Positions 7,949-46,555 are shown, counted from the stretch's first letter. The stretch: DNA of 64,000 nt from Limisphaerales bacterium (GCA_052325505.1 JBKQUS010000141.1:6509-70508); one strand, 5' to 3'. Program-made: numbers and translations. Notes: generated from the sequence alone by a model not told the origin.

Positions 7949-7975
7949 TTTCCCGGCCACCCCCGCGTAATCACA

Positions 7976-16651: not shown

Positions 16652-17275
16652 ATGAGGATTGGCACAGCCATTTATTTCACGCTGCTTCTGCTCATCGCCG
16701 TTGGGTTGAAGGCTGATCAGGTCCAAATGCAGAATGGCGATCGCTACGCTGGCAAGGTGCTTTCCATGACGGCTAACGCTGTTGTCCTGCAAAGCGATGT
16801 GCTGGGCAGGATCACCCTGCCGCGCGGCAAGGTGGCTGCGATCAACCTCGGCGCAATCGCGACATCGCCCGTTGTCCAGCCGCTGGTGGCCCGTGCCACC
16901 AACCAGACCGGGGCCGCTTCGCTCGTGCTGACCAACGCCAACCCCGACATTGCGGCCGCCTTGCGGCAACTGGGTGGGAACACCAATTTCATCGAGCAAA
17001 TCCGCAAACAATTCCTGAGCGAGGCCGGCCCGGAAGCGAACGACAAATTTGACGAGATGGTGGCCGGATTGATGAGCGGCAAAATCGACATGAACAGCCT
17101 GCGCGCCCAGGCCAAAGCCGCCGCCGACCAGATCAGGGCGCTGAAGAGCCAGGGCGACGTGGGCGAGCCGCCGGATTCCTATCTGGCTATACTTGACAAC
17201 TTTCTGAAACAGACCGTGCCGCCCGCCCCCGCGCCGCCCACCAATCGCATTCCGAACGCGCCTGTCATCCGATAA
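16652..17275 (+). CDS. Hypothetical secreted protein
   Basis: 207 aa with signal peptide MRIGTAIYFTLLLLIAVGLKA. Coding-like composition, a Pro-rich tail, and no family that I recognise. Confidence 0.5.
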   Translation: MRIGTAIYFTLLLLIAVGLKADQVQMQNGDRYAGKVLSMTANAVVLQSDVLGRITLPRGKVAAINLGAIATSPVVQPLVARATNQTGAASLVLTNANPDIAAALRQLGGNTNFIEQIRKQFLSEAGPEANDKFDEMVAGLMSGKIDMNSLRAQAKAAADQIRALKSQGDVGEPPDSYLAILDNFLKQTVPPAPAPPTNRIPNAPVIR

Positions 17276-17353
17276 GATCCGATGACCCTTTTCCTCATCC
17301 CCGCTCTCATAGAATCCTCCTGGGCCATTCCAGAGCATCGGTCATGCTACAGC

Positions 17354-17578
17354 GGCCGTGGCGTAAACTTGGAGGCGGGTTCAGGCTGGCGGTGTGCAAA
17401 TCACAAAGCCGGCGCCAAGAGCATTCCTCCGGGATGACTCAACAGCAGCCAGCTTCGATTGGTGGTTGGCGATGGCATGGCTTGGAAGCTATGTGCCTTG
17501 CCTGCTACAGAAAGCGTGGTTCTTTGCTAGCATTTGCCCAATCATCCATGAGGTAAATTTATCGTCAGTTATTAGCTT
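17354..17578. repeat. Direct-repeat copy 1 (~225 bp; partner at 29750-29975)
   Basis: By-eye alignment: a 108-nt core (17373-17480 vs 29771-29878) matches at 92/108, and the flanking segments match at roughly 75%, including identical ATGTGCCTTG, ACAGAAAGCG and ATGAGGTAAATTTATC blocks. Confidence 0.8.
17401..17478 (-). pseudogene. Truncated 5' remnant of a paralog of the 28710..29876 gene
   Basis: The minus-strand ATG at 17476-17478 gives MPSPTTNRSWLLLSHPGGMLLAPAL then a stop. The intact gene starts MSSPTTNRSWLLLILAGGVLLALALWVAHRQ... Similarity is lost beyond ~17354. Confidence 0.6.
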
Positions 17579-17631
17579 GCATTATTTTCTTAAAACCCAT
17601 ACAAAGCCTCAAATCGATTTCTTCCCGGCGG

Positions 17632-20600
17632 ATGGAGTCCGTTGTGAAGAAATGCCTGTGGATGAATTTGGAGGCAACGATGTTGCTGTGGGACTTGCCA
17701 TGCCGGCTTGAAGCCGTGTTGAAGAAAAAGCGCTTGGTGCTGCTGGTGGCGAGTTTTAGCCTCTTGAGCCTGCCGGCGGCGGCGCAATCCATCTATTCCG
17801 AAGCCTACACCTTCACCACTTTCGCTGGAAAAGCCCTGGGTGGCAGCGCCGACGGCGCGGGAACCGATGCGCAATTTGACGATCCAGAGGGTGTTGCGGT
17901 GGACAACGCAGGCAACGTCTATGTGGCGGACTCGGGGAACTGCACAATTCGGAAGATCACATCGGCGGGGGAAGTAAGCACCATTGCCGGATTTGCCTGG
18001 ACTGGCGGCAGCGCTGACGGCACTAACAGCGCCGCTCGGTTTTACTATCCCGGGGGCGTGGCGGTGGACAGCGCGGGCAATGTCTATGTGGCGGACTCGG
18101 GGAACTGCACGATTCGGAAGATGACGCCGGTTGGCACCAATTGGGTGGTCAGCACCATTGCCGGACTGGCAGACAATCCCGGCACCACTGACGGCACCAA
18201 CAGCGACGCGCGGTTTGGTGCGCCTAATGGCGTGGCCGTGGACAGCGCAGGCAACCTCTATGTGGGGGACTGGAACTACTTCACGATCCGGAAGATCACG
18301 CCGGTTGGCACCAATTGGGTGGTGAGCACCATTGCCGGATCGGCAGGCAATTCCGGCACCAATGACGGTACCAACAGCGATGCGCGGTTTTACCATCCCG
18401 AGGGCGTGGCGGTGGACACCCATGGCAATGTCTATGTGGCGGACTCGTGGAACTACACGATTCGGAAGATCACGCCGGTTGGCAGCAATTGGGTGGTCAG
18501 CACCATTGCCGGGCAGGCCGGGCAGGGGCACTACGGCTCTAGTAACGGCGTGGGCACCAACGCGCAGTTTAGCTTTCCGAATGGCATTGCGCTGGACGCC
18601 AACGGCAACCTCTATGTGGGGGACTATTACAACTCCACGATCCGGAAGATCACGCCCATCGGCACCAATTGGGTGGTCAGCACCTTTGCCGGGCAGGCCG
18701 GGATCGAAGGCTATAATGACGGCACGGGCACCAACGCGATTTTTAATTTACCCAATGGGACAGCGGTGGACACCAATGGCAACGTCTATGTGGCAGACGC
18801 AAACAACGACACGATTCGGATGATCACTCCCTTGGAAGTGGTGAGCACAATGGCGGGATCGGGGCCTGACAGCGAAGGTAGCGTGAACGGCACGGGCAGC
18901 GACGCGCGGTTTGATTTTCCGCTTGACGTGGCGGTGGACAGCGCGGGCAACGTCTATGTGGCGGATTCAGGCAACAATACGATTCGGAAGATCACCTCGC
19001 AGGGCGTAGTCAGCACCATTGCCGGATTGGCTGGAGCCACTGGCACCAATGACGGCGCGGGCAGTGATGCGCGGTTTTACTATCCCGAGGGCGTGGCGGT
19101 GGACAGCACTGGCAATGTCTATGTGGCTGACTCATATAACGCCACTATTCGCAAAGTGACCTCAGAAGGACTGGTGACGACACTCGCCGGGCTCTATGCC
19201 GGCACTAATGACGGCGCGGGAACCAATGCGCAATTTAACGGTCCTTCAGGCGTGGCGGTGGACAGCGCGGGCAACGTCTATGTGTCAGATACTGAGAATT
19301 ATACGATCCGGAAGATCACGCCAGTTGGCTCCAATTGGGTGGTTAGCACCATTGCCGGACTGGCAGGCATTCCCGGCACCAATGACGGCACCAACAGCGC
19401 CGCGCGGTTTAGTTATCCTTGCGACGTGGCAGTGGACAGCGCAGGCAACGTCTATGTATCAGATAATGGCAATAGTTTGGTACGGAAGATCACACCGGTT
19501 GGCACGAATTGGGTTGTCAGCACCATTGCCTGGCTCGCCGCGGCTTCCGTGGCGGTGGACAGAGCGGGCAACGTCTATGTGGCAAACTTCTACGGCGACG
19601 CGATTCAGAAGATCATCCCCGTTGGCACGAACTGGGTGGTGAGCACCATCGCTGGGGCGTGGGGAGTGGCGGGCAGTGCCGACGGAGCGGGCAGTGCCGC
19701 GATGTTTGACGGTCCTCAAGGTGTGGCGGTGGATGGCGCGGGCAACGTTTATGTGGCGGACACCGTCAACAATACAATCCGCAAGGGGGTCTTCACGCCA
19801 TACACCGCCGCCAACCCAGTGTCTGTCATCCAACCCGCCAACAATGCAACACTCGTGATCACTCTTTTCCCCCCCGACGCCAACGGACAATGGCGCTTCC
19901 CTTGGGAACTGGCCTGGCGCGCCAGCGGCACAGCCGCCACCAACCTTGTGCCGAACCAGAATTATACCGTCCAGTTCAGCCCGGTTCCCGGCTACCTGGC
20001 CATCCCGGTGCAGGAGACGATCTTTATCGCCGGTGGGACGAATTCTGTCACCGGCCAGTATTATCCCACCATTACGTCAGTTAACACGAGCAGCGGCGGG
20101 TCCCTGGAGGTCGTCTTCCAGGTCAACCCGCCCAGCGGGGCCGGTTGGAGGCTTTTGGGGGATACCAATGCCTTCCTTCCCTCCGGCTTTGCCACCAATC
20201 TTCTGCCGGGCAACTATCTCATCGAGTTCGCGGCGATCAGCAACTTCACCCAATTACCGATCCAGACTGTCCAGATCTCCGCCGGGTTGCCGACGGTGGT
20301 GCAGGAAATCTATCAAGGCTCGCAACCTGCGCCCACCGGGTTTCTCCTGCCCGAGCCGGTTCCATCCGGCGAGATCAGCGACACCAATTATCCCTATGGC
20401 TTCAATGGCCAACTGGAAACGGAAATCGGCTACGGCAGTGGCGTGGCAGTGGAGGGCAATGTGGTTTTGACGGCGGCGCACCTGGTCTTCAATGATCAGA
20501 CCCTGACGTATGTCAGTATGAGCAATGTTTGGTGGTATCCCCAAGAGGAAGCGCCGCAATTTGTGCCCTACCCGCAGCAAGCGCAAGGGACGCTCATCCT

Positions 20601-22566
20601 CAGCGGCTATGCGTCAGCACGAACCAACGATCTTCTGACAGACGGCCTCTCCGCCGGTCAATCCAGTCCGGAATCGCGCAACTTTGATGTTGCCGCCCTT
20701 TATTTTTCATCGCCCGTGGCAGGCGGCGGCTATAGCGGGTATTTGCCTTCAGACGCGACGCCGAATTACTGGCTGACCAGCACGGCCAACAAGATGCTGG
20801 TCGGCTATCCGGTGGATGGCTCCATGTTCCAAGTGCCCGACGTTGTGCCGGGGCAGATGTATGAGATCGGTCCGCAGCCGTATCCGTTGAGCATGGACAC
20901 GGAACAGGTCAATGAGCAACAAGAGGTTTACACAGCGTCGTGGTTTTTGAGTTATCCGGGCAACAGCGGCGGACCGTTCTACGTGGAGTTTAATGGCTGT
21001 TACTATCCAGCCGGCGTGTATTTGGGGACATTGTACAACGGCGCCACCTATGCGTCGGCCGTGCGCGCCATCGACAGCAAGGTGGTGAACCTCATCACCA
21101 ACGCCCAGTACTTTGTGACAACCGGCACAAACAACTCGGGCGGCGGCGTCGTTACTATCACAGCCAATCAGGCCGTCGGGGCAAACAATCCCGGCTATGT
21201 GCAAATACGACTGGGGCCGCCGGCGGCGGTGCAGGCCGGGGCCGGCTGGCGCTTGCAGGGTGATGCCACCTATTCGAGCGCCTCGAATTACACCGAGGAG
21301 GTGTTTACCACCAACGCGCTGGTCGTGCAGTTCGCGCCGGTCAGCGGGTATAGCCTGCCCACCAATCAAACCATCACGGTAGCGCCAGGAACTGTTGTAC
21401 CCCTGACAAACTACTACACCTTGGACGTGTCTTGGAGCGATCCCGCTGCCATCACCTACGGCACACCTCTCGGTGCCAGCCAACTCAATGCCACCGTCCC
21501 AGCGATCACCAATGGCACCTCTGGCCGATACAGCTACAATCCGACGAACGGAACCATCTTGAGAGTGGGCGCTCACACGCTTTCCGTCACGTTCACTCCG
21601 GGCGACACCACTGATTATGGCAGCGCCAGCGCAAGCACCAACGTCAGTCTGGTGGTCTCGCCCGCCACCTTGACCGTGACGGCGTCCAACGCCATTCGGC
21701 TCTATGGCCAGACTAACCCCGTGTTCGGGGGCACAATGACCAACTTGCAGAACGGGGACAACATCACAGCCTGTTACACTTGCAACGCCACCACCAACAC
21801 TGCGCCAGGCACGTATGCCATTGTGCCGAGTCTGGTGGATCCGAACAACCTGGCGACCAACTACACCGTCACCTTGTCCGACGGCATGCTCACCATCATC
21901 CAGCCGGGGCAACTGGTTCAGAACAGCGGTTTTGAGACCGGCGATTTTTCCTTTTGGACCCCGTCCGGCAATGCTGTCAACACCGGGAAAGTTGCCAACA
22001 TAGACATATACGTCAATTCCGCCTTTGTCATCCCTGGCCAACAATATGGGGCGGAATTGGGCCCGGCTGGCTCCCTGGGGTATCTCTCCCAGACGCTGCC
22101 GACCACCGTTGGGCAGTTGTACTTGCTTTCACTCTGGCTGGACAGCCCCGACGGTCTAACCCCCAATGAATTCTCGGTGGCTTGGAACGGAACCACTATT
22201 TTCGACCGGACCAATTTAGGCGCGATCGGCTGGACAAACCTGCAATTTAATGTTGCCGCGACCACGACCAACACCCTCCTGCAAATCGGATTTCGGGACG
22301 ACCCGTCCTACCTCGGACTCGACGATGTCAGCGTTCTTCCGTTGAGGCCGGTCTTGCAAAACATGATCCATACCATCTCGACAATCACATTCACCTGGAG
22401 CGCCCTGCCGGGGTCTAATTATCAAATCCAGACCGCGACGAATTTGACTCAAACCAACTGGACTGCATTAGGCGGCATCATCGACGCAACCAATTATACC
22501 ATAACCATTCCTGAACCCCGCGGCACCAACGCGCAACAGTTTTACCGCGTCGTGCTCTCGCCGTAG
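17632..22566 (+). CDS. Giant secreted mosaic protein: 12 NHL-type blades, PEGA-like beta-sandwiches, embedded trypsin-like (S1) peptidase domain, Ig-like + MBG domain, CBM-like domain, short C-terminal module
   Basis: 1644 aa. The start could be 17632, 17662 or 17680, and the signal peptide is KKKRLVLLVASFSLLSLPAAAQS. There are 12 units of the form G.A.DS.GNVYVADS.N.TIRKITP.G. The S1 triad context is VVLTAAHLVF (His codon 20479), NFDVAALYF and YPGNSGGPFY (Ser codon 20965). The MBG-like segment is YGQTNPVFGGT...TAPGTYAIVPS...NYTVTLSDGMLTI. The protein ends ...NAQQFYRVVLSP. Confidence 0.8.
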   Translation: MESVVKKCLWMNLEATMLLWDLPCRLEAVLKKKRLVLLVASFSLLSLPAAAQSIYSEAYTFTTFAGKALGGSADGAGTDAQFDDPEGVAVDNAGNVYVADSGNCTIRKITSAGEVSTIAGFAWTGGSADGTNSAARFYYPGGVAVDSAGNVYVADSGNCTIRKMTPVGTNWVVSTIAGLADNPGTTDGTNSDARFGAPNGVAVDSAGNLYVGDWNYFTIRKITPVGTNWVVSTIAGSAGNSGTNDGTNSDARFYHPEGVAVDTHGNVYVADSWNYTIRKITPVGSNWVVSTIAGQAGQGHYGSSNGVGTNAQFSFPNGIALDANGNLYVGDYYNSTIRKITPIGTNWVVSTFAGQAGIEGYNDGTGTNAIFNLPNGTAVDTNGNVYVADANNDTIRMITPLEVVSTMAGSGPDSEGSVNGTGSDARFDFPLDVAVDSAGNVYVADSGNNTIRKITSQGVVSTIAGLAGATGTNDGAGSDARFYYPEGVAVDSTGNVYVADSYNATIRKVTSEGLVTTLAGLYAGTNDGAGTNAQFNGPSGVAVDSAGNVYVSDTENYTIRKITPVGSNWVVSTIAGLAGIPGTNDGTNSAARFSYPCDVAVDSAGNVYVSDNGNSLVRKITPVGTNWVVSTIAWLAAASVAVDRAGNVYVANFYGDAIQKIIPVGTNWVVSTIAGAWGVAGSADGAGSAAMFDGPQGVAVDGAGNVYVADTVNNTIRKGVFTPYTAANPVSVIQPANNATLVITLFPPDANGQWRFPWELAWRASGTAATNLVPNQNYTVQFSPVPGYLAIPVQETIFIAGGTNSVTGQYYPTITSVNTSSGGSLEVVFQVNPPSGAGWRLLGDTNAFLPSGFATNLLPGNYLIEFAAISNFTQLPIQTVQISAGLPTVVQEIYQGSQPAPTGFLLPEPVPSGEISDTNYPYGFNGQLETEIGYGSGVAVEGNVVLTAAHLVFNDQTLTYVSMSNVWWYPQEEAPQFVPYPQQAQGTLILSGYASARTNDLLTDGLSAGQSSPESRNFDVAALYFSSPVAGGGYSGYLPSDATPNYWLTSTANKMLVGYPVDGSMFQVPDVVPGQMYEIGPQPYPLSMDTEQVNEQQEVYTASWFLSYPGNSGGPFYVEFNGCYYPAGVYLGTLYNGATYASAVRAIDSKVVNLITNAQYFVTTGTNNSGGGVVTITANQAVGANNPGYVQIRLGPPAAVQAGAGWRLQGDATYSSASNYTEEVFTTNALVVQFAPVSGYSLPTNQTITVAPGTVVPLTNYYTLDVSWSDPAAITYGTPLGASQLNATVPAITNGTSGRYSYNPTNGTILRVGAHTLSVTFTPGDTTDYGSASASTNVSLVVSPATLTVTASNAIRLYGQTNPVFGGTMTNLQNGDNITACYTCNATTNTAPGTYAIVPSLVDPNNLATNYTVTLSDGMLTIIQPGQLVQNSGFETGDFSFWTPSGNAVNTGKVANIDIYVNSAFVIPGQQYGAELGPAGSLGYLSQTLPTTVGQLYLLSLWLDSPDGLTPNEFSVAWNGTTIFDRTNLGAIGWTNLQFNVAATTTNTLLQIGFRDDPSYLGLDDVSVLPLRPVLQNMIHTISTITFTWSALPGSNYQIQTATNLTQTNWTALGGIIDATNYTITIPEPRGTNAQQFYRVVLSP
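17850..19790 (+). repeat. In-frame tandem coding repeats (165-174 bp period) encoding the NHL blades
   Basis: For example, the 50-mer at 17911-17960 and the one at 18076-18125 differ at only a few positions (GGCAA(C/T)GTCTATGTGGCGGACTCGGGGAACTGCAC(A/G)ATTCGGAAGAT(C/G)AC). Confidence 0.85.
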
Positions 22567-22580
22567 GCATATCATCTCCC

Positions 22581-24953
22581 ATGAATGCGCATTTTTCAGC
22601 CCGATCGAGCCAGGTGAAGTCCTGCTGCGGCTCTCCCATGCCTTGGCACCGTTCCACTTCGGCCTTCGACTGGTTTGCCCGCCAACTCAGATTCTTGGCA
22701 GGCCTGAGTGGCCTTCTCGCCCTGTTCGCCTTGTGGGTTGACGCGCAGTTGGCGCCAGCACAAATCCAGGTTTTTGAAGGGACAATCGTTATTACCAATG
22801 GGCAAATGACCCCGGTGAATTTCGGCAGCGTCCAGCAGAACCAGCCAGGGCCAACCATCATCTTCACGGTAACTAATGCTGGGGGCAGAGCATTGGATTT
22901 GAATTCGATAACAGGGCCATCGGGCTATACGATCAACACGAATTATCCACCATATATCCTTGGCGGGAGTAACGGCACGTTCAGTGTGCAGCTTAATTCA
23001 AGCACCATTGGGACCAACTCCGGCAACATCAGCATCCTCAATACCGATCCCAACAATACCACGTTTTCCTTTGCCGTTACGGGAATCGTGACGCCTCTTC
23101 CGCCAGCAATTCAGGTGTTCTATCGGACAAATACCATTACCAATGGCCAGATGACGCCACAGGTGGATTTCGGCAGTGTGCAGCAGAACCAGATCGCGCC
23201 CCCCATTACTTTCACGGTGACAAATTCGGGCGGGCAGACATTGGATTTGGAATCGATAACAGTGCCATCGGGCTATGCACTCGACACGAATTATCCGTTG
23301 ACAATCGCCGCTGGCAGTAATGGAACGTTCAGTGTGCAACTCAATGCGACCGTGGTTGGAACCAATTCTGGCAACATCAGCATTACCAACAATGCCCCCA
23401 ACAACCCGTTTGTCTTTGCGATTACAGGTTTGGTCACCGGCAAGGTCATTTCTTTAAGCGGTGATTTGGCGTTTGGTGTAGTGGCGATCGGTTCAAACAT
23501 GCAGGGCACTCTGACAATCAGCAACGGCGGCAATACGACGCTAAACGTCAGCAACATCATCTACCCGGCTGGATTTAGCGGCAATTGGTCGGGGGGGCCA
23601 ATTACGAATGGCGAATCACAATCTGTAACGGTGACATTGTCGCCCACCGTTGCCACCAACTACGGCGGCAACGTGACAGTTATCTCGGACGCAACCAGCG
23701 GCGCTGACACCATCCCTATTTCAGGTTTTGGGGCAAACGACTCTTTGTTGTTGACAGTTATCACCAACGGCGCTGGCACTGTGTCGCCAAACCGGAATGA
23801 CAAGGTTTTAATCGCGGGCCGGAGATACACCCTGACCGCGACTGCCAAAAGCGGCAATGTGTTTTCGAATTGGACCGGCAGCATCACTACGAACGAAAAT
23901 CCGCTCACTTTCACCATGGAGACCAACACGGTGGTTCAAGCCAATTTTATCACCAATCCGTTTCTGGCCGTTAAAGGTACGTATAACGGACTTTTCAGCA
24001 CGAGCAATGGCGTGACCGAACAAACGGCGGGGATGCTCAAGAGGCTGACCATTGGCCAGAAGGGAACCTACAGCGGGACGCTGTTAATCAATGGCGGAAG
24101 CCAGTCTTTCAGCGGGTCTTTCGATTTAGCCGGCCAAGCCACCAAGACTATTACGCGCGCGTCCGGCCATGGAGGTCCTTTGCTGTTGGAAATGACTTTG
24201 TCAAGTTCGAGCAACTCTGCGCCGCAGGTTACAGGCGCGGTTTCCGGGACCAACGATGAAGTTCCTTGGACGGCCACTAATCTGATGGCCAACCTCGCCA
24301 CCAACACCCTGCCTTCGGCTGAGTACACCATGCTGATGTTGCCGGACACCAATAGTGCGCCGACCATTTCGCCCGGCGGCGATGGCTATGCGTTGATCAC
24401 CAATCATGCGGGCAAAGCCACCATCACCGGGGCATTGGCCGATGGCGCCGCTTTCAGTCAATCGGTGCCCGTTTCCCAGGATGGCTCCGTTCCCATTTAC
24501 GCCAATCTTTACGGGAACAAAGGGCTGCTTCTGGGCTGGATCAATCTGAATCCGAGCAACGTTTCGGGGACTGGTCTGATTTGGGTTCATCCACCCATCC
24601 ATTCGGGCTTGTTCACAGATGCGTTCAACTCCACCAACTCAATCATGCTTTCCCCGTGGACCAATCCCCCGGCGGAAGGCGTCCTGGCAAATCTGACAAA
24701 TCTGTCGATTCTTGACATCATCAACAACACGAACGGTGTGACTGGCATTCCCGTGAACATCAGCACCACGGGCAAAGTGAACGGGTCGGAGGTGAGCGGT
24801 ACCATCAACCTCAAGACAGGATTGTTGAAACTGACCGTCGGCAGCGGGGCGAACAAGACGAACGGCTGCGGCGCGATTTTGCTCAATGAGACCAACGGTG
24901 CTGGTTATTTCCTGACCAAAACCAATGCCGGGGCGGTTATTTTGGGGCCATAG
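22581..24953 (+). CDS. Secreted protein: 2-3 choice-of-anchor-D-like Ig-fold repeats, InlB-B-repeat-like domain, ~330-aa conserved C-terminal region shared with the LRR giant protein
   Basis: 790 aa, starting 14 nt after the preceding stop, with signal-like LAGLSGLLALFALWVDAQLAPA. The unit IQVF.....ITNGQMTP.(V)DFGSVQQNQ..P.I.FTVTN.GG..LDL.SIT.PSGY...TNYP.....GSNGTFSVQLN is duplicated. The C-terminal region aligns by eye with 42571-43941. Confidence 0.7.
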   Translation: MNAHFSARSSQVKSCCGSPMPWHRSTSAFDWFARQLRFLAGLSGLLALFALWVDAQLAPAQIQVFEGTIVITNGQMTPVNFGSVQQNQPGPTIIFTVTNAGGRALDLNSITGPSGYTINTNYPPYILGGSNGTFSVQLNSSTIGTNSGNISILNTDPNNTTFSFAVTGIVTPLPPAIQVFYRTNTITNGQMTPQVDFGSVQQNQIAPPITFTVTNSGGQTLDLESITVPSGYALDTNYPLTIAAGSNGTFSVQLNATVVGTNSGNISITNNAPNNPFVFAITGLVTGKVISLSGDLAFGVVAIGSNMQGTLTISNGGNTTLNVSNIIYPAGFSGNWSGGPITNGESQSVTVTLSPTVATNYGGNVTVISDATSGADTIPISGFGANDSLLLTVITNGAGTVSPNRNDKVLIAGRRYTLTATAKSGNVFSNWTGSITTNENPLTFTMETNTVVQANFITNPFLAVKGTYNGLFSTSNGVTEQTAGMLKRLTIGQKGTYSGTLLINGGSQSFSGSFDLAGQATKTITRASGHGGPLLLEMTLSSSSNSAPQVTGAVSGTNDEVPWTATNLMANLATNTLPSAEYTMLMLPDTNSAPTISPGGDGYALITNHAGKATITGALADGAAFSQSVPVSQDGSVPIYANLYGNKGLLLGWINLNPSNVSGTGLIWVHPPIHSGLFTDAFNSTNSIMLSPWTNPPAEGVLANLTNLSILDIINNTNGVTGIPVNISTTGKVNGSEVSGTINLKTGLLKLTVGSGANKTNGCGAILLNETNGAGYFLTKTNAGAVILGP

Positions 24954-25187
24954 AAGGGGAAAGGCTGATTGAGAAGTGGGGTAAATCGAGTTGGGGCCTC
25001 TCCATTGCTTGTTTGGCGAGGGGCAAGATATGTCGAGTGATTCTTTAAGACAGTTGTTGACAACCGGCCCGCATGAGGTCTGAGTCGTATCAGATATTCG
25101 AGAACAAAGTGACGCGGCTTTTGGGCTGCGTGGCAAGGCCCGTGCATCGTTGAACGGGTGTTGCACGGTGGTTTCAGACACAACCTG

Positions 25188-28100
25188 ATGAACTTTCGAG
25201 GCAATGCGGTGAGGCTCGTATTGCGAGCCGCAATTGTTGGATGGTTTGCCATCTCTGCGGCACGTCTGGCCACACCCCTCAGAGCCTCGGATCAGGTCAC
25301 GAATGAAGCGCGCGTGATTGCGACCCAAGGTGTGGTTGAAGTGTCTCCAGCGGGTGCGCGCACCTGGGTGATGACCCAAACCAATCAGGTTCTTTATGCG
25401 GGGGATCGACTTTGCACCGGGAAAGGCAGCCGGGCGACTTTGCGTCTTTCCAATTTGAGCGTATTGCGCGTCTATGAGTTGACGACGCTGCAGATCCAGC
25501 CGCCGGAAGAACCGAAAAGCCGGGGAATCCTCGATTTGATATCCGGGGCCGCCTATTTTTTCAATCGCGACAAGCCGACGGAAACCCAGTTCCGCACGCC
25601 TTCCGCTTCGGGGGCTATTCGGGGAACGGAATTCAACATTGTGGTGGCCGGCAATGGCCGGATGGAATTGGCGCTGCTGGACGGCCAGATCGATCTGACC
25701 AACAACCAGGGCACTCTCCGGCTGCAAACCGGGGAGAAAGCGGTGGTTGAACCCGGCCAGGCCCCCAAAAAGTCGCCGCTGATTGACGCTGTCAATGTCA
25801 TCCAATGGACGCTTTATTATCCGGCCATATTGGATGCAGACGAGTTGGATTTGAGCGCGGAGATCAAGGAGGCGCTGGGTCCGTCGCTGGAGGCCTATGG
25901 CAGCGGGGATTTGCTGAAAGCCCTGGCGAAGTATCCCGAGGGCCGCGCCGCCGCGTCGGAATCGGAGCGGGTTTATCACGCGGCATTGCTTCTGGCGGCC
26001 GGGCAGGTGGAGGGTGCGCAGCAAATGTTGCAAGAGGCGAACCGCGAGCCGCGCGCGGCCGCGTTGGCCGGGGCCTTGCAGGAAATGATTGCATCGGTCA
26101 AAGGCCAGCCCTGGACGAGGAGCGGGCCGCGCACATTGGCCACCGAATGGATGGCTGGTTCTTATCAGGCACAAGCCCATCACGATCTGGGTGTGGCCCT
26201 GAACATGGCAAAAAGCGCGGCGGCCACATCGCCTGGATTTGGTTTCGCCCAGGAACGGTTGGCGGAAATGGAGTTTAGTTTTGTGCAGACCGAAGCGGCC
26301 CTGGCTGCGCTGAATAAGAGCCTTGCGCTATCGCCGCGCAACGCCCAGGCAGTTGCACTAGACGGGTTCCTGTTAAGCGCGCAAAATCGGATAAGAGACG
26401 CGCTTGCGGCATTTGATCGCGCCATCATTGTGGACGGGGCGCTGGGCAATGCGTGGCTGGGACGGGGGCTCTGCCGCATCAAACTTGGCCAGGATCGATT
26501 GGGGCGCGAAGACTTGCTTATTGCCGCCGCCTTGGAACCACAGCGGGCGTTGCTCCGCAGCTATCTGGGCAAGGCATTCGCCGACAGTGGCGACGATGTC
26601 CGCGCCGACAAGGAATTGATGCTGGCCCGCAAGTTGGACGCAAACGACCCGACGGCCTGGCTCTATCTGGCGCTGTTGGAACAGGAGCAAAACCAGATCA
26701 ATCCGGCGATTTCCGACCTGCAAAACGCCCAAACCAACAATGACAATCGCAGTGTGTTCCGGTCCCGCCTTCTGCTGGATCAAGACCGCGCGGTCGCCAG
26801 CGCCAACCTGGCTTCCGTTTATCGCGACGCCGGCATGACGGATGTCAGCGTGCGCGAGGCGGCGCGCGCGGTGACGGACGATTACGCGAACGACTCAGCC
26901 CACTTGTTCCTGGCTGACAGCTATTACGACTTGCTGGACCCGACGCAATTCAACCTGCGTTACGACACCGCCTGGTTCAACGAATTGCTTCTGGCCAACA
27001 TCCTCGCGCCGGTGGGCGCCGGCCGCCTCTCCCAGCAAGTCTCCCAACAAGATTACTCCAAACTTTTCGAGGCAGACGGCTTGGGTCTCGCCGCCTCTAG
27101 CGACGCGCGGACCGACGGGATGTACCATGAGACAGCCTCCCAATTTGGCACATTTGGGAACACCTCCTATGGTCTTGATTTGAACGATTACCACAACACG
27201 GGCTTCCGCATCAATAACGGTCTCGATAATCTCAATTTGGACGCCACGATCAAACAGCAGATTACTCCCCAGGACACGGCGATAGTGTTGGTCCAGTATG
27301 AGAATTATCATTCGGGCGACAACTTCCAGTATTACTATCAGACCAACGCGCGGCCCGATTACAAATTCAACGAGGAACAGCAGCCTGAGTTGGTCGGCAC
27401 ATGGCATCATGAGTGGGGCCCCGGCATGCACACCTTGCTGCTGGTTGGCAGGCTGATGGACAATCAGTCGTTCAATGATCAAGCGTCGCCGCAACTGCTT
27501 TTCGCTGAAAGCCCATCGGGCGCCATCTATGGGGAGAGTGCGGTGCCTTTCAACGTGGGCTATCAAGAAGAGTTCAAGATCTATTCCGCCGAACTGGAGC
27601 AAATCTGTCAATGGGAGCGTGTTACTTTGCTGGCGGGTGGCCGCTACCAATCCGGCGAGTTCCACACTCAAGACCAGTTCAGCAATCCGTCAGCCCCTCC
27701 CGTTTTGTTCACCCCATCCGGCGCCTACAGCGCCAACACGACCGGTCTCTTCCAGCGCGAGACCGCTTACACTTATCTCACGGTCGAGCCGCTGGACCAT
27801 CTCTGGCTCACGGGGGGCGTGGCGGCTGACGACGAAACATTTCCGTATTATTTTCGCAACCCACCCGTCACTTCAGGGGAAGACACAAGAACACAAGTTG
27901 GCCCCAAGGCGGCCCTGGTCTGGAGTCCCATTCCAGAAGCTACCCTGCGCGGTATTTATACCCGCTCCCTTGGTGGCGTGAGTCTTGACGAAAGCTACCG
28001 CCTGGAACCCACTGAACTGGCTGGTTTTCCACAAGCCTTCCGCAGCCTGATATCCGAGTCGATCGTTGGCTCGCAATCGGCGCCCACGTTTGAAACCTTG

Positions 28101-28703
28101 GGCGCGGCGCTCGATCTCAAATTCAGGTCCCGCACTTACGCCGAATTCCAGTTTGAGCATTTGGGGTCCGATGTCAACCAGGGCATCGGCGATTTCGTGC
28201 TGGCGAACGGCGTGACCCCGGCCATTGTTTCCGCCACTGACGAACGGTTGGATTACAACGAGAACGCCTTCGCCGTGAGCCTCAACCAGCTTGTGGGTGA
28301 TGATTTTGTTTTTGGAGCCGGCTATAAGGTCACGCAATCCGACCTGCAAGATGACCTGCCTGATATTCCAGTCTCAGCCCTGGCGACGGCCAATCAGACG
28401 CTCAAAGCCAACCTTCAGGAGGTTGACGGCTACGCCCTGTTCAACCATCGCTCCGGCTTTTATGCCAAGTTCGAGACGCACTGGTATGGCCAAAGGAATG
28501 AAGGGTGGACGCCGGCCGAACCTTACTCCAGTTTTTTCCAGGAAAATATTTTCGCCGGTTATCGTTTCGCGCACCGGCGCGCGGAACTGCAACTCGGCAT
28601 TCTCAATCTTTCCGGCGGAGGCTACGAATTGAACCCGCTCACTGTCTATCAGGAATTACCTATGAAGCGCGTGTTTGAAGCGAGCTTCAACTTCATTTTC
28701 TGA
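25188..28703 (+). CDS. FecR-domain + TPR + C-terminal beta-barrel outer-membrane protein
   Basis: The ATG at 25188 gives MNFRGNAVRLVLRAAIVGWFAISAARLATPLRA, a signal peptide. The FecR-like segment is LYAGDRLCTGKGSRATLRLSNLSVLRVYELTTL...FRTPSASGAIRGTEFNIVV...LLDGQIDL. TPR-like helices span roughly aa 230-560. The last ~600 aa alternate in a beta-strand pattern rich in Y/G/N/D and end in ...FEASFNFIF, a terminal aromatic typical of OMP barrels. Confidence 0.7.
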   Translation: MNFRGNAVRLVLRAAIVGWFAISAARLATPLRASDQVTNEARVIATQGVVEVSPAGARTWVMTQTNQVLYAGDRLCTGKGSRATLRLSNLSVLRVYELTTLQIQPPEEPKSRGILDLISGAAYFFNRDKPTETQFRTPSASGAIRGTEFNIVVAGNGRMELALLDGQIDLTNNQGTLRLQTGEKAVVEPGQAPKKSPLIDAVNVIQWTLYYPAILDADELDLSAEIKEALGPSLEAYGSGDLLKALAKYPEGRAAASESERVYHAALLLAAGQVEGAQQMLQEANREPRAAALAGALQEMIASVKGQPWTRSGPRTLATEWMAGSYQAQAHHDLGVALNMAKSAAATSPGFGFAQERLAEMEFSFVQTEAALAALNKSLALSPRNAQAVALDGFLLSAQNRIRDALAAFDRAIIVDGALGNAWLGRGLCRIKLGQDRLGREDLLIAAALEPQRALLRSYLGKAFADSGDDVRADKELMLARKLDANDPTAWLYLALLEQEQNQINPAISDLQNAQTNNDNRSVFRSRLLLDQDRAVASANLASVYRDAGMTDVSVREAARAVTDDYANDSAHLFLADSYYDLLDPTQFNLRYDTAWFNELLLANILAPVGAGRLSQQVSQQDYSKLFEADGLGLAASSDARTDGMYHETASQFGTFGNTSYGLDLNDYHNTGFRINNGLDNLNLDATIKQQITPQDTAIVLVQYENYHSGDNFQYYYQTNARPDYKFNEEQQPELVGTWHHEWGPGMHTLLLVGRLMDNQSFNDQASPQLLFAESPSGAIYGESAVPFNVGYQEEFKIYSAELEQICQWERVTLLAGGRYQSGEFHTQDQFSNPSAPPVLFTPSGAYSANTTGLFQRETAYTYLTVEPLDHLWLTGGVAADDETFPYYFRNPPVTSGEDTRTQVGPKAALVWSPIPEATLRGIYTRSLGGVSLDESYRLEPTELAGFPQAFRSLISESIVGSQSAPTFETLGAALDLKFRSRTYAEFQFEHLGSDVNQGIGDFVLANGVTPAIVSATDERLDYNENAFAVSLNQLVGDDFVFGAGYKVTQSDLQDDLPDIPVSALATANQTLKANLQEVDGYALFNHRSGFYAKFETHWYGQRNEGWTPAEPYSSFFQENIFAGYRFAHRRAELQLGILNLSGGGYELNPLTVYQELPMKRVFEASFNFIF

Positions 28704-28709
28704 GCGCGC

Positions 28710-29876
28710 TCAATGCCCCTGCCTGACCTGCGCCGCGAATCCCTCCAGGCGTTGTGTAATAGTCTGCAACTCTGGAACTACCTCGGCAAAGCGCGGGTCG
28801 GCCAGCCACTCCTGCGCCACGGCCAGGGCCTGCGCGTCGAGACTCATCAATGCGTCGTGGTTGGGCGTGTTGGCTTGGGTGAGAAGGTTGGGCGAGATCA
28901 TGAAGTTGGCGTTCGGATAAATGGCGGCGAACGTTTGCAGTTCAGCCGTGCTAATGGCAGGGTCGAGCAGGTAACTTTCCAGGATTTGCCGCTGCTGCGG
29001 ATCGCCCACGTTGGCGCGGGCAAAGTAATCCGCTCGAGTCGATTCCCGTCCCTCCATCATATCGGGATCATCCTCCAGCAACCCCAGCACGGTGGCGGGG
29101 TTGCTGATGACCAACCGATCCAAGGCCAGATAAGCGGCGTGAGCCACGGCGGGATTGTCCTGACTGCAAACCAATTGCGACAACGTCGGCACGAAATCCG
29201 CGCCACCCAGATACACCGGCACGTCGAACGCCTCCAGAAAGCCGGTGGATGGATTTTGCTGCCAGGGCGTGTATTGCATCATCTGGGCTGTCTTTTGCTC
29301 CAACAGCGCGCGGCTATCGGCGCTGGCATCGCCCGAGGCCAGGTTACGCAAAGCCACCGCCCATTCATCCGCTGAATCCATGCTGGCCAGCACCGCCTTG
29401 GAATAATCAGCCGCCGCGGCTGGATCGAGGCGGCCCAGTTCATCCAGCAGAAACGTTCGCAGAGTGGGAGCCTCGTCCAACATGCCGTCGGAAGCCAGCT
29501 TGAATCCCAGGTGGGTGGAGGCATCCGCCTTTGAATCAAGAAACTGGCGAATGGCCGCGATGGCCGCGCTCTTCGGCATGGCCGCAAGGTTCTGTCGCAA
29601 CTCCGCCAGTTCTTGCCGAGTGATCCGCGCGTCGAACTCCTTGCGCAAGGCTTCGCACGTTTGTTGCAATCTGCGGTCGCCCTCAGCCGCAGGACGGGCG
29701 ATCGTGTTGGCCGCACTTGGAGTGGTAGTTGCTTCGGGCGAAGAGGTTGCGACTGTGGCGTGAACCTGGACGGCGGGTTCAGACTGGCGGTGCGCAACCC
29801 ACAGAGCAAGCGCCAACAGCACACCTCCGGCAAGAATCAACAGCAGCCAGCTTCGGTTGGTGGTGGGCGATGACAT
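28710..29876 (-). CDS. Hypothetical membrane-anchored, predominantly alpha-helical protein
   Basis: I prefer the ATG at 29874-29876 (MSSPTTNRSWLLLILAGGVLLALALWVAHRQ, an N-terminal TM anchor). The rest is Ala/Leu-rich and helical-looking, with no family that I recognise. It is convergent with the OMP gene, with 6 nt between the stops. Confidence 0.55.
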   Translation of the reverse strand: MSSPTTNRSWLLLILAGGVLLALALWVAHRQSEPAVQVHATVATSSPEATTTPSAANTIARPAAEGDRRLQQTCEALRKEFDARITRQELAELRQNLAAMPKSAAIAAIRQFLDSKADASTHLGFKLASDGMLDEAPTLRTFLLDELGRLDPAAAADYSKAVLASMDSADEWAVALRNLASGDASADSRALLEQKTAQMMQYTPWQQNPSTGFLEAFDVPVYLGGADFVPTLSQLVCSQDNPAVAHAAYLALDRLVISNPATVLGLLEDDPDMMEGRESTRADYFARANVGDPQQRQILESYLLDPAISTAELQTFAAIYPNANFMISPNLLTQANTPNHDALMSLDAQALAVAQEWLADPRFAEVVPELQTITQRLEGFAAQVRQGH

Positions 29877-29975
29877 GGCGCGAATAGTATGTGCCTTGAC
29901 TACAACAGAAAGCGCAAATCTTTGCAAGCTTTTGCCCGAATCCACAATGAGGTAAATTTATCATATCTTATTAGT
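29750..29975. repeat. Direct-repeat copy 2 (partner at 17354-17578); covers the promoter, 5' UTR and first ~40 codons of 28710..29876
   Basis: See copy 1. Both copies have the same orientation on the plus strand. Confidence 0.8.
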
Positions 29976-30053
29976 GGTTGGAAACGACATGGTTGGAAAC
30001 GAGCTTGCCAGTTGGGGCTGGGTGGGGCTTACTGCGTCGAGTTTTTTTGAAAA

Positions 30054-31844
30054 ATGAATCGTGACCTGCTGGCCAGAGCCAAATCGCTGGGGTTCTCCGA
30101 CCGCCAAATTGCCAATTTAACTGGCCAATCCGAGGATGATGTCCGCGCCTTGCGCAAGACGCTCGGGCTGAAGCCGAGTTATCGCCTGGTGGATACGTGC
30201 GCGGCGGAGTTCGAGGCTTACACGCCTTATTATTATTCCACCTATGATTGCGGGGATGACGAAAGCAAATTGGGCGAGAAACGCAAGGTGATGATCCTCG
30301 GCGGCGGTCCGAACCGGATCGGGCAGGGGATCGAATTTGACTATTGCTGCGTCCATGCCGCCTTTGCCTTGAAGGAGGACGGGTTCGAAACGCTCATGGT
30401 CAACTCGAATCCGGAAACGGTTTCGACCGATTACGATACAAGCGACAAGCTGTTTTTCGAACCTTTGACGCTGGAGGACGTGCTGCATGTCTATGAGCGG
30501 GAGAAGTGCTGGGGCGCCATCGCGCAATTCGGCGGGCAGACGCCGTTGAACCTGGCGCTGGCCCTGCAAAAGAACGGTGTCAACATCATCGGCACCTCGC
30601 CGCAGAGCATCGAGATCGCTGAGGACCGCAAACTTTTTTCGGCCATGCTGACCCGGCTGAAAATTCCGCAGCCGCCCAACGGCCTCGCCACCAACGAGGC
30701 GGAAGCGATCCAGGCTGCGCACGGCTTGGGCTACCCGGTGTTGGTGCGGCCATCTTTCGTGCTTGGTGGGCGCGCCATGCAGATTGTTTATTCGGATGCG
30801 GAATTGAACCATTATATGCGGTTCGCCGTCGAAGCATCCCCGGAACGGCCCGTCCTGGTGGACAAATTCCTGGAGGATGCCACCGAGGTGGACGTGGATT
30901 GCATCGCGGACACGGGGCATTTTGACGATGCGGCGCAGGGGACGATTGTGATAGGCGGTTTTCTGGAGCACATTGAATATGCCGGGGTGCATTCGGGCGA
31001 TGCGGCCATGGTATTGCCTGCGCACACGCTTTCCAAAGACGTCATCGAGACCATGCGCCAATATACACACGCCATGGCGCGGGAATTGCGCGTCGTCGGC
31101 TTGATGAACGTGCAATACGCGGTCAAGGGCCGGACGGTCTATGTGTTGGAAGTCAATCCGCGCGCCTCGCGCACCGTCCCTTTTGTCAGCAAAGCCATTG
31201 GCGTGCCGCTGGCCAAGCTTGCGGCCCGCGTCATGGCGGGCAAGAAACTGGCTGACCTCGGTTTTACAAAAGAGATTTGGACCCGTCACTGGGCGGTCAA
31301 GGAATCGGTCTTTCCCTTCAATCGGTTTCACGGCCAGGACATTCTGCTCTCGCCGGAAATGCGATCCACCGGTGAGGTGATGGGTTTGGACGCGGACCTC
31401 GGGATCGCCTACGCCAAATCGCAAATGGCGGCCAACGCGCCTTTGCCGCTGGGCGGGCGTGTGTTTATCAGCGTAAGCGACGCGGACAAGAAAAAAGTGG
31501 CCGCTGTGGCGCGAAAATTTGCCGATCTGGCCTTTGAAATCGTCTGCACCGCCGGCACGGCGAAGGTCCTGGAGGAAGCGGGCTTGAAAGTGTCGCGCGT
31601 TCCCAAACTGGCCGAAGGCCGGCCCAACACGCTGGATTTGCTCAAGAACCGGGAGATTCAACTGGTCATCAACACCCCGGCGGGCCAGACGCCGCGCGCC
31701 GACGAAATCAAGATTCGCACCACCGCCGTTTATACCGGAACGCCCATCATGACCACTCTGAGCGGGGCACGGGCCGCTGCGCGGGGCATTGCCGCCTTGA
31801 AGAAGAACGGCTACGGTGTCAAGACGATTCAAGAATATCATTGA
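30054..31844 (+). CDS. carB: Carbamoyl-phosphate synthase large subunit, C-terminal half only (second ATP-grasp + MGS-like allosteric domain)
   Basis: 596 aa. The N-terminus MNRDLLARAKSLGFSDRQIANLTGQSEDDVRALRKTLGLKPSYRLVDTCAAEFEAYTPYYYSTYD corresponds to the middle of the CarB oligomerisation domain. It is followed by VMILGGGPNRIGQGIEFDYCCVHA, a second ATP-grasp domain and a C-terminal MGS-like domain. An in-frame TGA lies two codons upstream of the ATG. Confidence 0.88.
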   Translation: MNRDLLARAKSLGFSDRQIANLTGQSEDDVRALRKTLGLKPSYRLVDTCAAEFEAYTPYYYSTYDCGDDESKLGEKRKVMILGGGPNRIGQGIEFDYCCVHAAFALKEDGFETLMVNSNPETVSTDYDTSDKLFFEPLTLEDVLHVYEREKCWGAIAQFGGQTPLNLALALQKNGVNIIGTSPQSIEIAEDRKLFSAMLTRLKIPQPPNGLATNEAEAIQAAHGLGYPVLVRPSFVLGGRAMQIVYSDAELNHYMRFAVEASPERPVLVDKFLEDATEVDVDCIADTGHFDDAAQGTIVIGGFLEHIEYAGVHSGDAAMVLPAHTLSKDVIETMRQYTHAMARELRVVGLMNVQYAVKGRTVYVLEVNPRASRTVPFVSKAIGVPLAKLAARVMAGKKLADLGFTKEIWTRHWAVKESVFPFNRFHGQDILLSPEMRSTGEVMGLDADLGIAYAKSQMAANAPLPLGGRVFISVSDADKKKVAAVARKFADLAFEIVCTAGTAKVLEEAGLKVSRVPKLAEGRPNTLDLLKNREIQLVINTPAGQTPRADEIKIRTTAVYTGTPIMTTLSGARAAARGIAALKKNGYGVKTIQEYH

Positions 31845-32205: not shown

Positions 32206-32653
32206 TTGACTGCAATCTGCCTGACGCAAGCGCGCGGCGCAACCCATGGAATCATTCAAGGACGGATGCATTGGTTTGAGTTGACAGTTGGGGCAGGCTT
32301 GGGGAAACAAAGATTCACGCAGATTCGGGGAAATTTTAACGCGTTCAGCCCAAAATCAGCCCTTGCGTGGCCGTTCCTTTCTGCTCCTCGATTTATTTTA
32401 AATGATATAGAGCATTGACTCACAAAGTATTATAAGATAGCTCTACCTGGTCCATCAACCCATCGGCATTGATAATGCTGCAATTGGACCCGCATAGCCA
32501 AAACATGAAGTAGTTTGTCGTAATCTGCTTATAGACACGCAAGCTTGGTACATGCCATGATTCTGCGCTGTGCTCCTTCTCTCGCGTAAAATTTTGAGAA
32601 TAATATGTTCCAATTCTGTATTGGGAGGACAACAATACTGTAGAAAGGAATCA

Positions 32654-46380: not shown

Positions 46381-46523
46381 ACTTGCGGGATCATGCCATC
46401 TTTTGCCGGTTGAAGCGAGGTAAATAAGCTGAACGACAAGCACATTTATTGTCGGGCTGGGCGCAAACAATGGTTGGTTCATTGTCAGCGTCCTCACCGT
46501 TGATGGGGAACCTCTTCTTCCCG

Positions 46524-46555
46524 CCCTCTCCTCCACAAGCGTGTGGAGGAGAGGG
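46524..46555. repeat. GC-rich perfect hairpin / palindrome (14-bp stem, 4-nt loop)
   Basis: CCCTCTCCTCCACA-AGCG-TGTGGAGGAGAGGG, read directly from the sequence. It lies in the divergent intergenic region between the LRR gene and the GT39-like gene. Confidence 0.8.

Follow-up and report, generated by a model that had tools for sequence, protein, structure and literature searches.

The window analysed here is a stretch of 64,000 nucleotides from a Limisphaerales bacterium (GCA_052325505.1, JBKQUS010000141.1:6509-70508). Three co-directional genes, which a sequence-only reading had placed in this stretch, were located on the + strand as claimed: gene 1 at 17632-22566 (ORF of 1644 aa), gene 2 at 22581-24953 (790 aa) and gene 3, coding for an outer-membrane protein (OMP), at 25158/25188-28703 (1181/1171 aa). 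The 14 nt reported between the first two genes were found again, while the second gap, given as 235 nt, measures 234 nt to the ATG at 25188, or 204 nt if the mechanically called GTG start is taken; alignments with homologues begin at the ATG region. The true start of gene 1 is probably ATG 17680, downstream of which a signal peptide is encoded (...LLSLPAAAQS). The N-terminal signal peptides assigned to all three proteins were borne out as judged by eye, and a lipobox cysteine was absent from all three.

The spacer upstream of the OMP gene (24954..25187) contains a single weak hairpin with a T-run at 24992-25004 and could harbour a promoter of the OMP gene's own; a scan of positions 17000-30100 returned promoter- and terminator-like sites in counts at or below shuffled expectation. 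Neither Rfam nor tRNA scanning gave a match in the region or the window. The only PADLOC match, to PD-T4-6, fell within the NHL-repeat region of gene 1 (residues 590-660); it was taken as an NHL-repeat match and rejected as a defence system.

Gene 1 encodes a giant secreted protein whose homologues cluster near OMPs similar to NsrA of Sinorhizobium meliloti (see below). Its description as an NHL/S1-protease giant was firmly supported in its first part, with NHL repeats recognised by Pfam in 10 stretches (E 3e-85), and in a more qualified manner in its second. The beta-propeller repeats occupy aa ~55-740 and are followed by an Ig-like pair, a trypsin-like S1/PA clan peptidase module (aa ~916-1185; 20377..21186, + strand), a further Ig-like domain, MBG_2, a jelly-roll-like region and an FN3-like domain, with FYRVVLSP as the last residues. 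The S1 module is divergent and shows the motifs LTAAHLV (His) and YPGNSGGP (Ser) along with an invariant Asp; the triad H35, D104 and S197 (GNSGGP) is invariant in an alignment of eight sequences. Matches to Trypsin_2/Trypsin were obtained for all eight aligned modules, the best with E 3.4e-7 and that of the window copy with E 0.008 and 17.4 bits, i.e. under the cut-off of 27.6. Since searches against PDB sequences (phmmer and profile search) gave no significant match, the S1 assignment rests on motifs and sub-threshold Pfam matches.

The secreted protein encoded by gene 2 (22581..24953, + strand) carries three choice-of-anchor-D/DUF1573 Ig-like domains and, at aa 391-788, an InlB-B-repeat plus a C-terminal module of ~330 aa. 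Choice-of-anchor D (NF012200, NCBIfam) was detected in three stretches with 102.7 bits (cut-off 45), and DUF1573 and Flg_new_2 were matched in Pfam. The LRR giant encoded at 42571-46725(-) has a stretch, aa 930-1338, that shares 32% identity with this C-terminal module (E 1e-38), and in L086, L094, L149, L156, L158 and L160 the module is fused to NHL/S1 giants. The choice-of-anchor-D gene had been considered a constituent of a candidate module, but only L085, the closest relative, has it together with gene 1, 24 nt downstream of the giant, and the C-terminal module alone recurs. Gene 2 appears to be a satellite of the giant, with which it shares a modular C-terminal domain.

Architecture and fold of the OMP

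The 1171-aa product of gene 3 (25188..28703, + strand) consists of a signal peptide, a FecR domain, a TPR solenoid and a barrel of ~22 strands, in agreement with the FecR-TPR-barrel order and terminal Phe that had been read from the sequence. FecR (PF04773) was matched at aa 83-178 (numbering of the 1181-aa ORF) with E 2.3e-9, TPR matches were obtained for the window OMP as well as for its homologues and for the protein of S. meliloti, and the C-terminal residues are FNFIF. In the AlphaFold2 model (mean pLDDT 71) a helix at 5-28 is followed by the FecR beta-sandwich (41-196), helical repeats (203-606) and ~22-23 strands at 631-1170, which upholds the predicted barrel fold of the C-terminal region. 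The best Foldseek matches of the model were 22-strand TonB-dependent transporter barrels (E ~1e-12); the Pfam match to the TonB barrel PF00593 was weak (18.7 bits, cut-off 27). The most conserved part is the pre-barrel segment (aa 521-630; 26748..27077, + strand), with a mean column identity of 86% and 39% of columns invariant; it is modelled with low confidence and could serve as a plug or as an interface to a partner.

Neither a Plug domain nor a TonB box was found in Pfam searches or in the model. The OMP was therefore rejected as a TonB-dependent receptor, its FecR and TPR parts furthermore sitting N-terminal of the barrel. It was also rejected as a FecR anti-sigma factor, having only a cleavable-looking signal peptide and no anti-sigma or transmembrane part, and no sigma gene was detected among the scanned OMP neighbours. 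With the FecA-FecR-FecI system the OMP shares the 22-strand TBDT-type barrel fold and the presence of a periplasmic FecR domain in trans-envelope signalling, and an ECF-sigma-like gene lies divergently upstream in some sister OMP subfamilies. In contrast to that system, the window OMP has no plug or TonB box, its FecR domain forms one polypeptide with the barrel instead of belonging to an anti-sigma factor of the inner membrane, a cyclase and not a sigma factor is the output partner, and no ECF sigma gene lies next to the window gene.

Because the barrel lacks a recognisable plug, a pore function is possible. The giant and the choice-of-anchor-D protein had been proposed to be exported through the OMP or anchored by it. 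The absence of any other dedicated secretion genes beside the block speaks for this: as had been stated earlier, Pfam and NCBIfam searches covering the block and the neighbouring genes revealed no T1SS, T2SS, POTRA, autotransporter, T9SS C-terminal domain, PEP-CTERM or sortase signal, and likewise no ShlB, autotransporter barrel or DUF560 barrel in the three proteins and neighbours. It should be added that TPR-barrel fusions, such as BcsC, PgaA and Slam, do export other cargo and that these, like PelB, combine an N-terminal periplasmic TPR region and a C-terminal outer-membrane barrel in one protein. However, the barrels of BcsC, PgaA, PelB and Slam have 14-18 strands, belong to other families and come without a FecR domain, and these proteins are partnered by polysaccharide synthases or lipoproteins instead of cyclases. 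The OMP had no Pfam match to TPR-barrel exporters, and as a Slam-, BcsC- or TPS-type exporter it was rejected on the grounds of no family match and of a conserved partner that is a cyclase. Lack of POTRA/DUF560 and of an energy-coupling component, together with a putative cargo devoid of a lipobox, also argues against export. A sub-threshold TPR_Slam match was seen elsewhere in the window, on an unrelated protein (5447-7960).

Homology to NsrA and linkage to CHASE2 cyclases

The OMP was aligned by hhalign (probability 99.6%, E 1e-23, 798 columns) with a 1190-aa FecR-TPR-barrel protein of S. meliloti (L080:5896-9465), the homology covering FecR, TPR and part of the barrel. CHASE2 and cyclase ORFs are located directly downstream of the S. 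meliloti gene, and an OMP-CHASE2 cyclase pair with overlapping stop and start codons is present in Rhizobium sp. BG4. On the basis of organism, megaplasmid, length, architecture with barrel position, and adjacent CHASE2 cyclase, the S. meliloti protein is very probably NsrA. Contrary to the earlier view that the gene combination could not be assigned to a described system, the OMP does fall within one. To our knowledge, NsrA is the sole studied family member linking an outer-membrane barrel to CHASE2 sensors, its receptor role is backed by genetics alone, and we know of no ligand of CHASE2 domains in general.

NsrA is an outer-membrane beta-barrel protein, with the barrel at aa 600-1200 (PMC7529298), which along with the CHASE2 cyclases CyaK and CyaD1/D2 is needed for perceiving a proteinaceous signal (PMC7529298, PMC13001267, PMC10463352), and which also works with the unlinked CyaD1/D2 (PMC7529298). 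The cue in S. meliloti is the plant ribosomal protein uL2. Both systems agree in protein size (~1170-1190 aa), in the order of signal peptide, FecR, TPR and C-terminal barrel of ~550-600 aa, and in the CHASE2 cyclase gene, which adjoins the OMP gene in most relatives of the window OMP just as in the S. meliloti and BG4 loci. They differ in that the window OMP is only ~25% identical and has no linked cyclase, that giant NHL/Ig/S1 proteins and an armadillo-like protein, C2, occur in the window subfamily and are absent at rhizobial loci, and that Verrucomicrobiia have a vastly enlarged family, single genomes carrying several paralogues. Its size in soil and peat Verrucomicrobiia shows in 2177 matches of the first search and at least 583 matched genomic stretches; a barrel-only search gave 1034 representative clusters, 439 of them at E<=1e-30. 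Among the 150 barrel matches listed, most were ~1150-1250 aa long with the barrel C-terminal, and about a quarter were shorter and apparently partial; the domain architecture is constant across the family. In the literature, no paper was found connecting CHASE2 or NsrA with Verrucomicrobia.

With ORFs of the compared loci taken as simple longest-ORF calls, a CHASE2+Guanylate_cyc gene stood beside the OMP gene in 49 of the 79 related loci, immediately downstream on the same strand in 27 and at position +2 in 12. It is present in L082, whose OMP is 77% identical to that of the window, and small cNMP-binding proteins adjoin the cyclase in several loci. In the 64-kb window, neither a CHASE2 cyclase (tblastn with 40+ CHASE2 cyclases as queries) nor a cNMP-binding gene (nothing below E 0.1) was detected, and L009, the closest genome locus, has no cyclase within 10 kb. 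The output partner of the window OMP would hence be encoded elsewhere, as are CyaD1/CyaD2 for NsrA; alternatively, as the cyclase is missing from both window and L009, the output of this copy may differ or have been lost.

Being a relative of NsrA, the OMP most likely functions as a sensor and not as an export pore, and the sensor function, which had been offered as the second option, fits the data better. The family-wide partner of the OMP is the CHASE2 cyclase and not the giant, and the homologue that has been characterised acts as a signal receptor (PMC7529298), both of which count against the export explanation.

Giant proteins and C2 around the OMP genes

Synteny of OMP homologues with giant NHL proteins, which had been suggested as a matter for survey, was confirmed in both search directions and is restricted to one OMP subfamily. 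NHL/Ig-S1-Ig ORFs made up 30 of 369 ORFs within three genes of the OMP and none of 394 at four or more genes from it, the p-value of 1.8e-10 overstating the support as the loci are phylogenetically non-independent. Starting conversely from the S1 module, an OMP or cyclase was encountered in 16 of the 22 loci of at least 15 kb; in the fully flanked loci, an OMP, cyclase or C2 was found in 10 of 12.

This real and bidirectional synteny could be read in favour of export. Against it, such a giant is missing from ~50 of the 79 OMP loci and from the rhizobial ones, two of the 12 fully flanked giant loci have neither OMP, cyclase nor C2 nearby, and proteins sharing the same C-terminal modules are encoded in the window far from any such OMP (32570-39244, 7976-10108(-) and 42571-46725(-)). 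The role of the OMP as conduit or anchor for its upstream neighbours is, consequently, unlikely in our judgement.

The gene for C2 (388 aa; 28710..29876, - strand) lies tail-to-tail with the OMP gene, with 6 nt in between, and C2 represents a fourth conserved partner within the subfamily of the window OMP. C2 carries a transmembrane anchor at its N-terminus, then a disordered linker, and an armadillo/HEAT-like solenoid (model pLDDT 84). C2 has 735 homologues and belongs to no Pfam family; no match was found among PDB sequences, and Foldseek returned only generic armadillo/HEAT repeats (E >= 5e-3).

The position of the giant is variable. In L011, L020 and L037 it separates OMP from cyclase, the gaps measuring 34-343 nt; it directly precedes the cyclase beyond C2 in L024, and is found in still other gene orders in L003, L004, L079 and L082. 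In L085, whose OMP is 89% identical, the order is OMP-C2-giant-P2, as compared with giant-P2-OMP-C2 in the window.

Such variation in position and orientation would speak for the giants being outputs of a cNMP regulon, or otherwise merely co-regulated, with no physical tie to the OMP. [quoted passage not shown] Nevertheless, the giant frequently lies on the same strand as OMP and cyclase, between the two and at short distances, an arrangement that parts of a single complex would show, and the accessory type follows the OMP subfamily: in a neighbour-joining tree, each subfamily had one type, namely S1/NHL giants with C2, an ECF sigma with a small Ig protein, or Ig-rich C3 proteins. This tracking suggests co-evolution with the OMP itself, and co-regulation without contact appears to us rather improbable, though less so than export.

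The same tree limits the S1/NHL giant association largely to a single OMP clade, and genes for giant surface proteins are very abundant in these genomes, with at least four in the window, which encodes several unrelated giant secreted proteins. Chance, or a neighbourhood inherited by close genomes through shared ancestry, could on these grounds be invoked for the linkage, the more so as that of gene 2 to the OMP is not kept beyond L085. The giant's linkage, on the other hand, has persisted despite repeated rearrangement of gene order and orientation, no such ORF occurred at the distant positions, and the enrichment was reproduced in the reverse search; we therefore consider this explanation very unlikely.

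A proposed trans-envelope sensor model and related systems

The reading that we favour, and regard as probable though by no means secure, is that gene 3 encodes an NsrA-type trans-envelope sensor, that the giant NHL/S1 protein is a clade-specific extracellular accessory, and that the block holds no dedicated exporter. The 22-strand barrel would be embedded in the outer membrane, and the TPR solenoid and FecR domain would extend into the periplasm and act, by a presumed contact, on the periplasmic CHASE2 domain of a class III adenylate/guanylate cyclase residing in the inner membrane, so that an extracellular cue would be converted into cAMP or cGMP. The partner cyclase of the window OMP would be encoded at an unlinked site, in the manner of CyaD1/CyaD2. 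In the verrucomicrobial subfamily, this sensor would have gained the giant NHL-propeller/Ig/S1 protein and the membrane-anchored armadillo-like C2. The giant is most likely an accessory of the sensor, acting as a ligand-capturing or -processing antenna or being itself the monitored surface protein, and is probably not the cargo of the barrel.

More tentatively, the giant, helped by C2, might dock on or gate the barrel, and capture or proteolysis of an extracellular macromolecule might then be relayed through the TPR/FecR arm to the activity of the CHASE2 cyclase. If so, the system would be a protease-coupled trans-envelope receptor with an extracellular partner co-evolving with the barrel, and OMP subfamilies would differ in that partner (S1/NHL giants, Ig-rich proteins or ECF-linked small Ig proteins).

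The linkage of an NsrA-like OMP to giant NHL/serine-protease proteins is a new variation on a little-studied signalling system. Subfamily-specific extracellular partners suggest what these sensors monitor, i.e. proteins or proteolysis at the cell surface, in concordance with the proteinaceous, protease-sensitive signal of NsrA. Annotation of gene 3 as a novel secretion pore, attractive as it is, would probably be wrong.

A cluster of CHASE2 cyclase, phosphodiesterase, FecR-domain OMP and TPR protein has been reported from Campylobacterota (PMC9239204), and the grouping of a FecR-bearing OMP with TPR and CHASE2 cyclase in this cAMP cluster resembles the present family. There, however, TPR is described as a separate protein, whereas the window OMP unites FecR, TPR and barrel in one polypeptide; the phosphodiesterase has no counterpart seen here, and giant proteins are not reported from that cluster. 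In Burkholderia, an operon is reported to comprise a FecR protein and a CHASE2 kinase (PMC5192318).

The gene block and its outer-membrane protein

The three co-directional ORFs that the sequence-only reading had proposed to form an export or anchoring module were all found in place: gene 1 (17632-22566, +; 1644 aa), encoding a giant protein with NHL repeats and a putative S1-protease module, gene 2 (22581-24953, +; 790 aa), encoding a choice-of-anchor-D protein, and gene 3 (ORF 25158-28703, +; 1171 aa from the ATG at 25188, used as the start), encoding the outer-membrane protein (OMP). Genes 1 and 2 are separated by 14 nt, and gene 2 and the ATG of gene 3 by 234 nt. Inspection by eye revealed a signal-peptide-like N-terminus in all three products and a lipobox Cys in none. 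The block is embedded among housekeeping genes, being preceded by purM, tyrS and a lactonase gene and followed by a carB-like gene and purL; in agreement with the sequence-only reading, no secretion machinery was recognisable among the flanking genes. It should be added that, of the carbamoyl-phosphate synthase large subunit, the carB-like ORF (30054-31844, +) beside the OMP gene and its neighbour C2 encodes the second half alone, which comprises the end of the oligomerisation domain together with the second ATP-grasp and MGS domains. The first half does not adjoin it, and carB is here either split or truncated.

In the gene 3 product, FecR, TPRs and a weak TonB-barrel match were identified. 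Its AlphaFold2 model (mean pLDDT 71, from an alignment of 25 homologues) comprised a signal helix (5-28), a beta-sandwich (41-196), a TPR solenoid (203-606) and approximately 22-23 strands (631-1170). The C-terminal region, previously described as barrel-like, was hence modelled as a barrel, which Foldseek grouped with 22-strand TonB-dependent transporters (E ~1e-12, target TM ~0.5); no plug domain was found in the protein. The most conserved stretches, namely the pre-barrel aa 521-630 (26748-27077, +; 86% column identity) and the surroundings of aa 901-960, including the 929-963 loop (27972-28076, +), were also among the lowest-confidence parts of the model, a pattern that fits a plug or partner interface, and they may function as such.

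The OMP forms part of a large, uniform family. The first homologue search returned 2177 matches, the best 120 of which were all at least 52% identical and mostly full-length (~1120-1250 aa), and a search with the barrel only returned 1034 representative clusters, with most of the 150 matches listed being ~1150-1250 aa long and having a C-terminal barrel. Members occurred on at least 583 genomic stretches, nearly all from Verrucomicrobiia MAGs, several of which harboured at least two copies.

Probable relation to the rhizobial receptor NsrA

A tblastn search of plasmids with the OMP yielded matches on rhizobial megaplasmids. The match in Sinorhizobium meliloti, on a 1.64-Mb replicon, was a 1190-aa 'TonB-dependent receptor' with FecR (66-160), TPRs and a C-terminal barrel, directly followed by ORFs with CHASE2 and cyclase domains; in Rhizobium sp. 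BG4, the stop of the gene for a 1213-aa FecR protein and the start of a gene for a CHASE2 cyclase overlap. In organism, replicon size, length, barrel position and the adjoining CHASE2/cyclase ORFs, the S. meliloti protein matches published NsrA and is very probably this receptor. Profile comparison aligned the verrucomicrobial OMP with the S. meliloti protein at 99.6% probability over 798 columns, and the OMP can thus be assigned to a described system, which the sequence-only reading had not been able to do for the gene combination. In Garnerone's work of 2018, nsrA is reported to be located directly upstream of cyaK. The CHASE2 and cyclase parts in this S. meliloti strain occupy two overlapping ORFs (L080:9465-11416, +) with no CDS in the PLSDB gene table, and the split may point to a frameshift or pseudogene, or to a gap in that table.

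NsrA is an outer-membrane protein with a barrel at aa 600-1200. Perception of a proteinaceous signal, the ribosomal protein uL2, requires it alongside the CHASE2 cyclases CyaK and CyaD1/CyaD2 (PMC7529298, PMC13001267, PMC10463352). The pairing of FecR and CHASE2 is a wider theme, described also in Campylobacterota (PMC9239204) and Burkholderia (PMC5192318).

The survey of OMP neighbourhoods in 79 genome loci revealed a ~675-aa protein with CHASE2 and Guanylate_cyc domains as the dominant partner (49/79 loci; 29/41 of those extending 4 kb or more to either side). Of the copies, 27 directly follow the OMP gene on its strand and 12 are at position +2, and in several loci the cyclase was flanked by small cNMP-binding proteins. 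No cyclase or cNMP-binding gene was detected in the 64-kb window, where the cyclase is thus unlinked to the OMP, as are CyaD1 and CyaD2 in S. meliloti.

The best-supported role of the OMP is therefore that of a trans-envelope sensor of the NsrA type, which the sequence-only reading had offered as the alternative to a conduit or anchor for the two upstream proteins. A barrel with no recognisable plug would suit such a conduit, but export is the less likely explanation, weakened by the cyclase being the conserved partner of the family, by the characterised homologue being a receptor, by the lack of giant neighbours in most members, and by the occurrence of the same C-terminal modules on proteins elsewhere in the window with no such OMP nearby.

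Paired NsrA-like OMP genes, as tandem or nearby paralogues, were observed inside one 20-kb locus in L012, L020, L022, L050 and L073; in several MAGs the copies resided on separate contigs.

Giant proteins and the C2 partner

Gene 1 encodes 10 or more NHL repeats together with an MBG_2 domain and a divergent trypsin-like (S1) module, whose His, Asp and GNSGGP Ser are invariant among relatives; Trypsin_2/Trypsin was matched by 8/8 aligned members (best E 3.4e-7), the window copy alone being sub-threshold. ORFs with its NHL region or Ig-S1-Ig module were present in 21 of the 79 OMP loci, accounting for 30/369 ORFs at most three genes from the OMP and 0/394 farther away (Fisher p 1.8e-10, a value that overstates significance, the loci not being independent). 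Gene order varied, with arrangements such as OMP-giant-cyclase (L011, L020, L037), giant-cyclase-OMP (L003), giant-OMP-C2-cyclase (L004, L063), OMP-C2-giant-cyclase (L024) and OMP-C2-giant-cNMP-binding protein-cyclase (L082). Conversely, with the S1 module alone as query against metagenome contigs, the OMP or cyclase was found in 16/22 loci of at least 15 kb, and the OMP, cyclase or C2 in 10/12 fully flanked loci. The L085 locus, which has an 89% identical OMP, is arranged as OMP-C2-giant-P2 (P2 being gene 2) and the window as giant-P2-OMP-C2; the cassette is thus permuted between close relatives with its linkage intact.

In the neighbour-joining tree of OMPs, rooted with the rhizobial proteins, S1/NHL giants and C2 fell almost wholly into one clade, which included the window protein, and other clades were associated with an ECF-sigma-like gene and a small Ig protein, or with Ig-rich C3 proteins. 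The linkage of OMP and giant is real within one OMP subfamily of ~25 members; the expected synteny holds there, but most members of the family have no giant neighbours.

The C2 gene (28710-29876, -) and the OMP gene are arranged tail-to-tail with 6 nt between them. C2 falls in a 735-member family of 'hypothetical' proteins, none with a Pfam domain. In its model (pLDDT 84), a disordered linker joins a membrane anchor to an armadillo/HEAT-like solenoid, and it accompanied the OMP or giant in 15 genome and 25 metagenome loci. In this clade, an NsrA-type sensor would have acquired two additions, a giant extracellular protein with propeller and protease-like parts and a scaffold in the membrane. 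The OMP belongs with the NsrA kind, and the four-part module of giants, C2 and OMP would be a variant of it. The gene 1 giant may serve in ligand capture or signal processing, or may itself be the monitored surface protein.

Two S1 modules beside an OMP (L005:1756-4830(-) and L005:13416-17150(+)) have Asp in place of His and have lost the GNSGGP serine; judging by these residues they are probably pseudo-proteases, and catalysis may therefore be dispensable for the OMP-giant partnership. Among the loci of a sister OMP subfamily (L020, L047, L051, L055, L056, L059, L065 and L078), most had a divergently oriented, 208-aa ECF-sigma-like gene (Sigma70_r2 only) upstream of the OMP, often with a small Ig-domain protein downstream, an arrangement that points to sigma-factor coupling as well in some NsrA-like OMPs.

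Interchangeable C-terminal modules

Gene 2 encodes three choice-of-anchor-D/DUF1573 domains and an InlB-type B-repeat, and as a whole recurred only in L085. Its C-terminal 400 aa (23751-24944, +), consisting of the B-repeat and a ~330-aa domain, matched aa 930-1338 of a BspA-type LRR giant (42571-46725, -) at 32% identity (E 1e-38), and the same module is fused to the ends of NHL/S1 giants in six relatives (L086, L094, L149, L156, L158, L160). Given this recurrence and fusion, the gene 2 C-terminus is a mobile, second interchangeable module.

Furthermore, a ~75-aa FN3-like C-terminal domain ending in F-Y-[RK]-[VI] is common to three unrelated giants of the window (22327-22563, +; 39010-39241, +; ~7976-8200, -, the third protein having QYFILQ) and also occurs in C3, C8 and C23, which neighbour other OMPs. 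This domain had no Pfam or NCBIfam match and is a candidate shared sorting or anchoring domain. Another giant surface protein, secreted and 2224 aa long, is encoded near the block (32570-39244, +). It does not belong to the NHL/S1 type and combines 14 GloVer choice-of-anchor repeats with a pro-kumamolisin (sedolisin) activation domain and with Ig_3/I-set and He_PIG domains.
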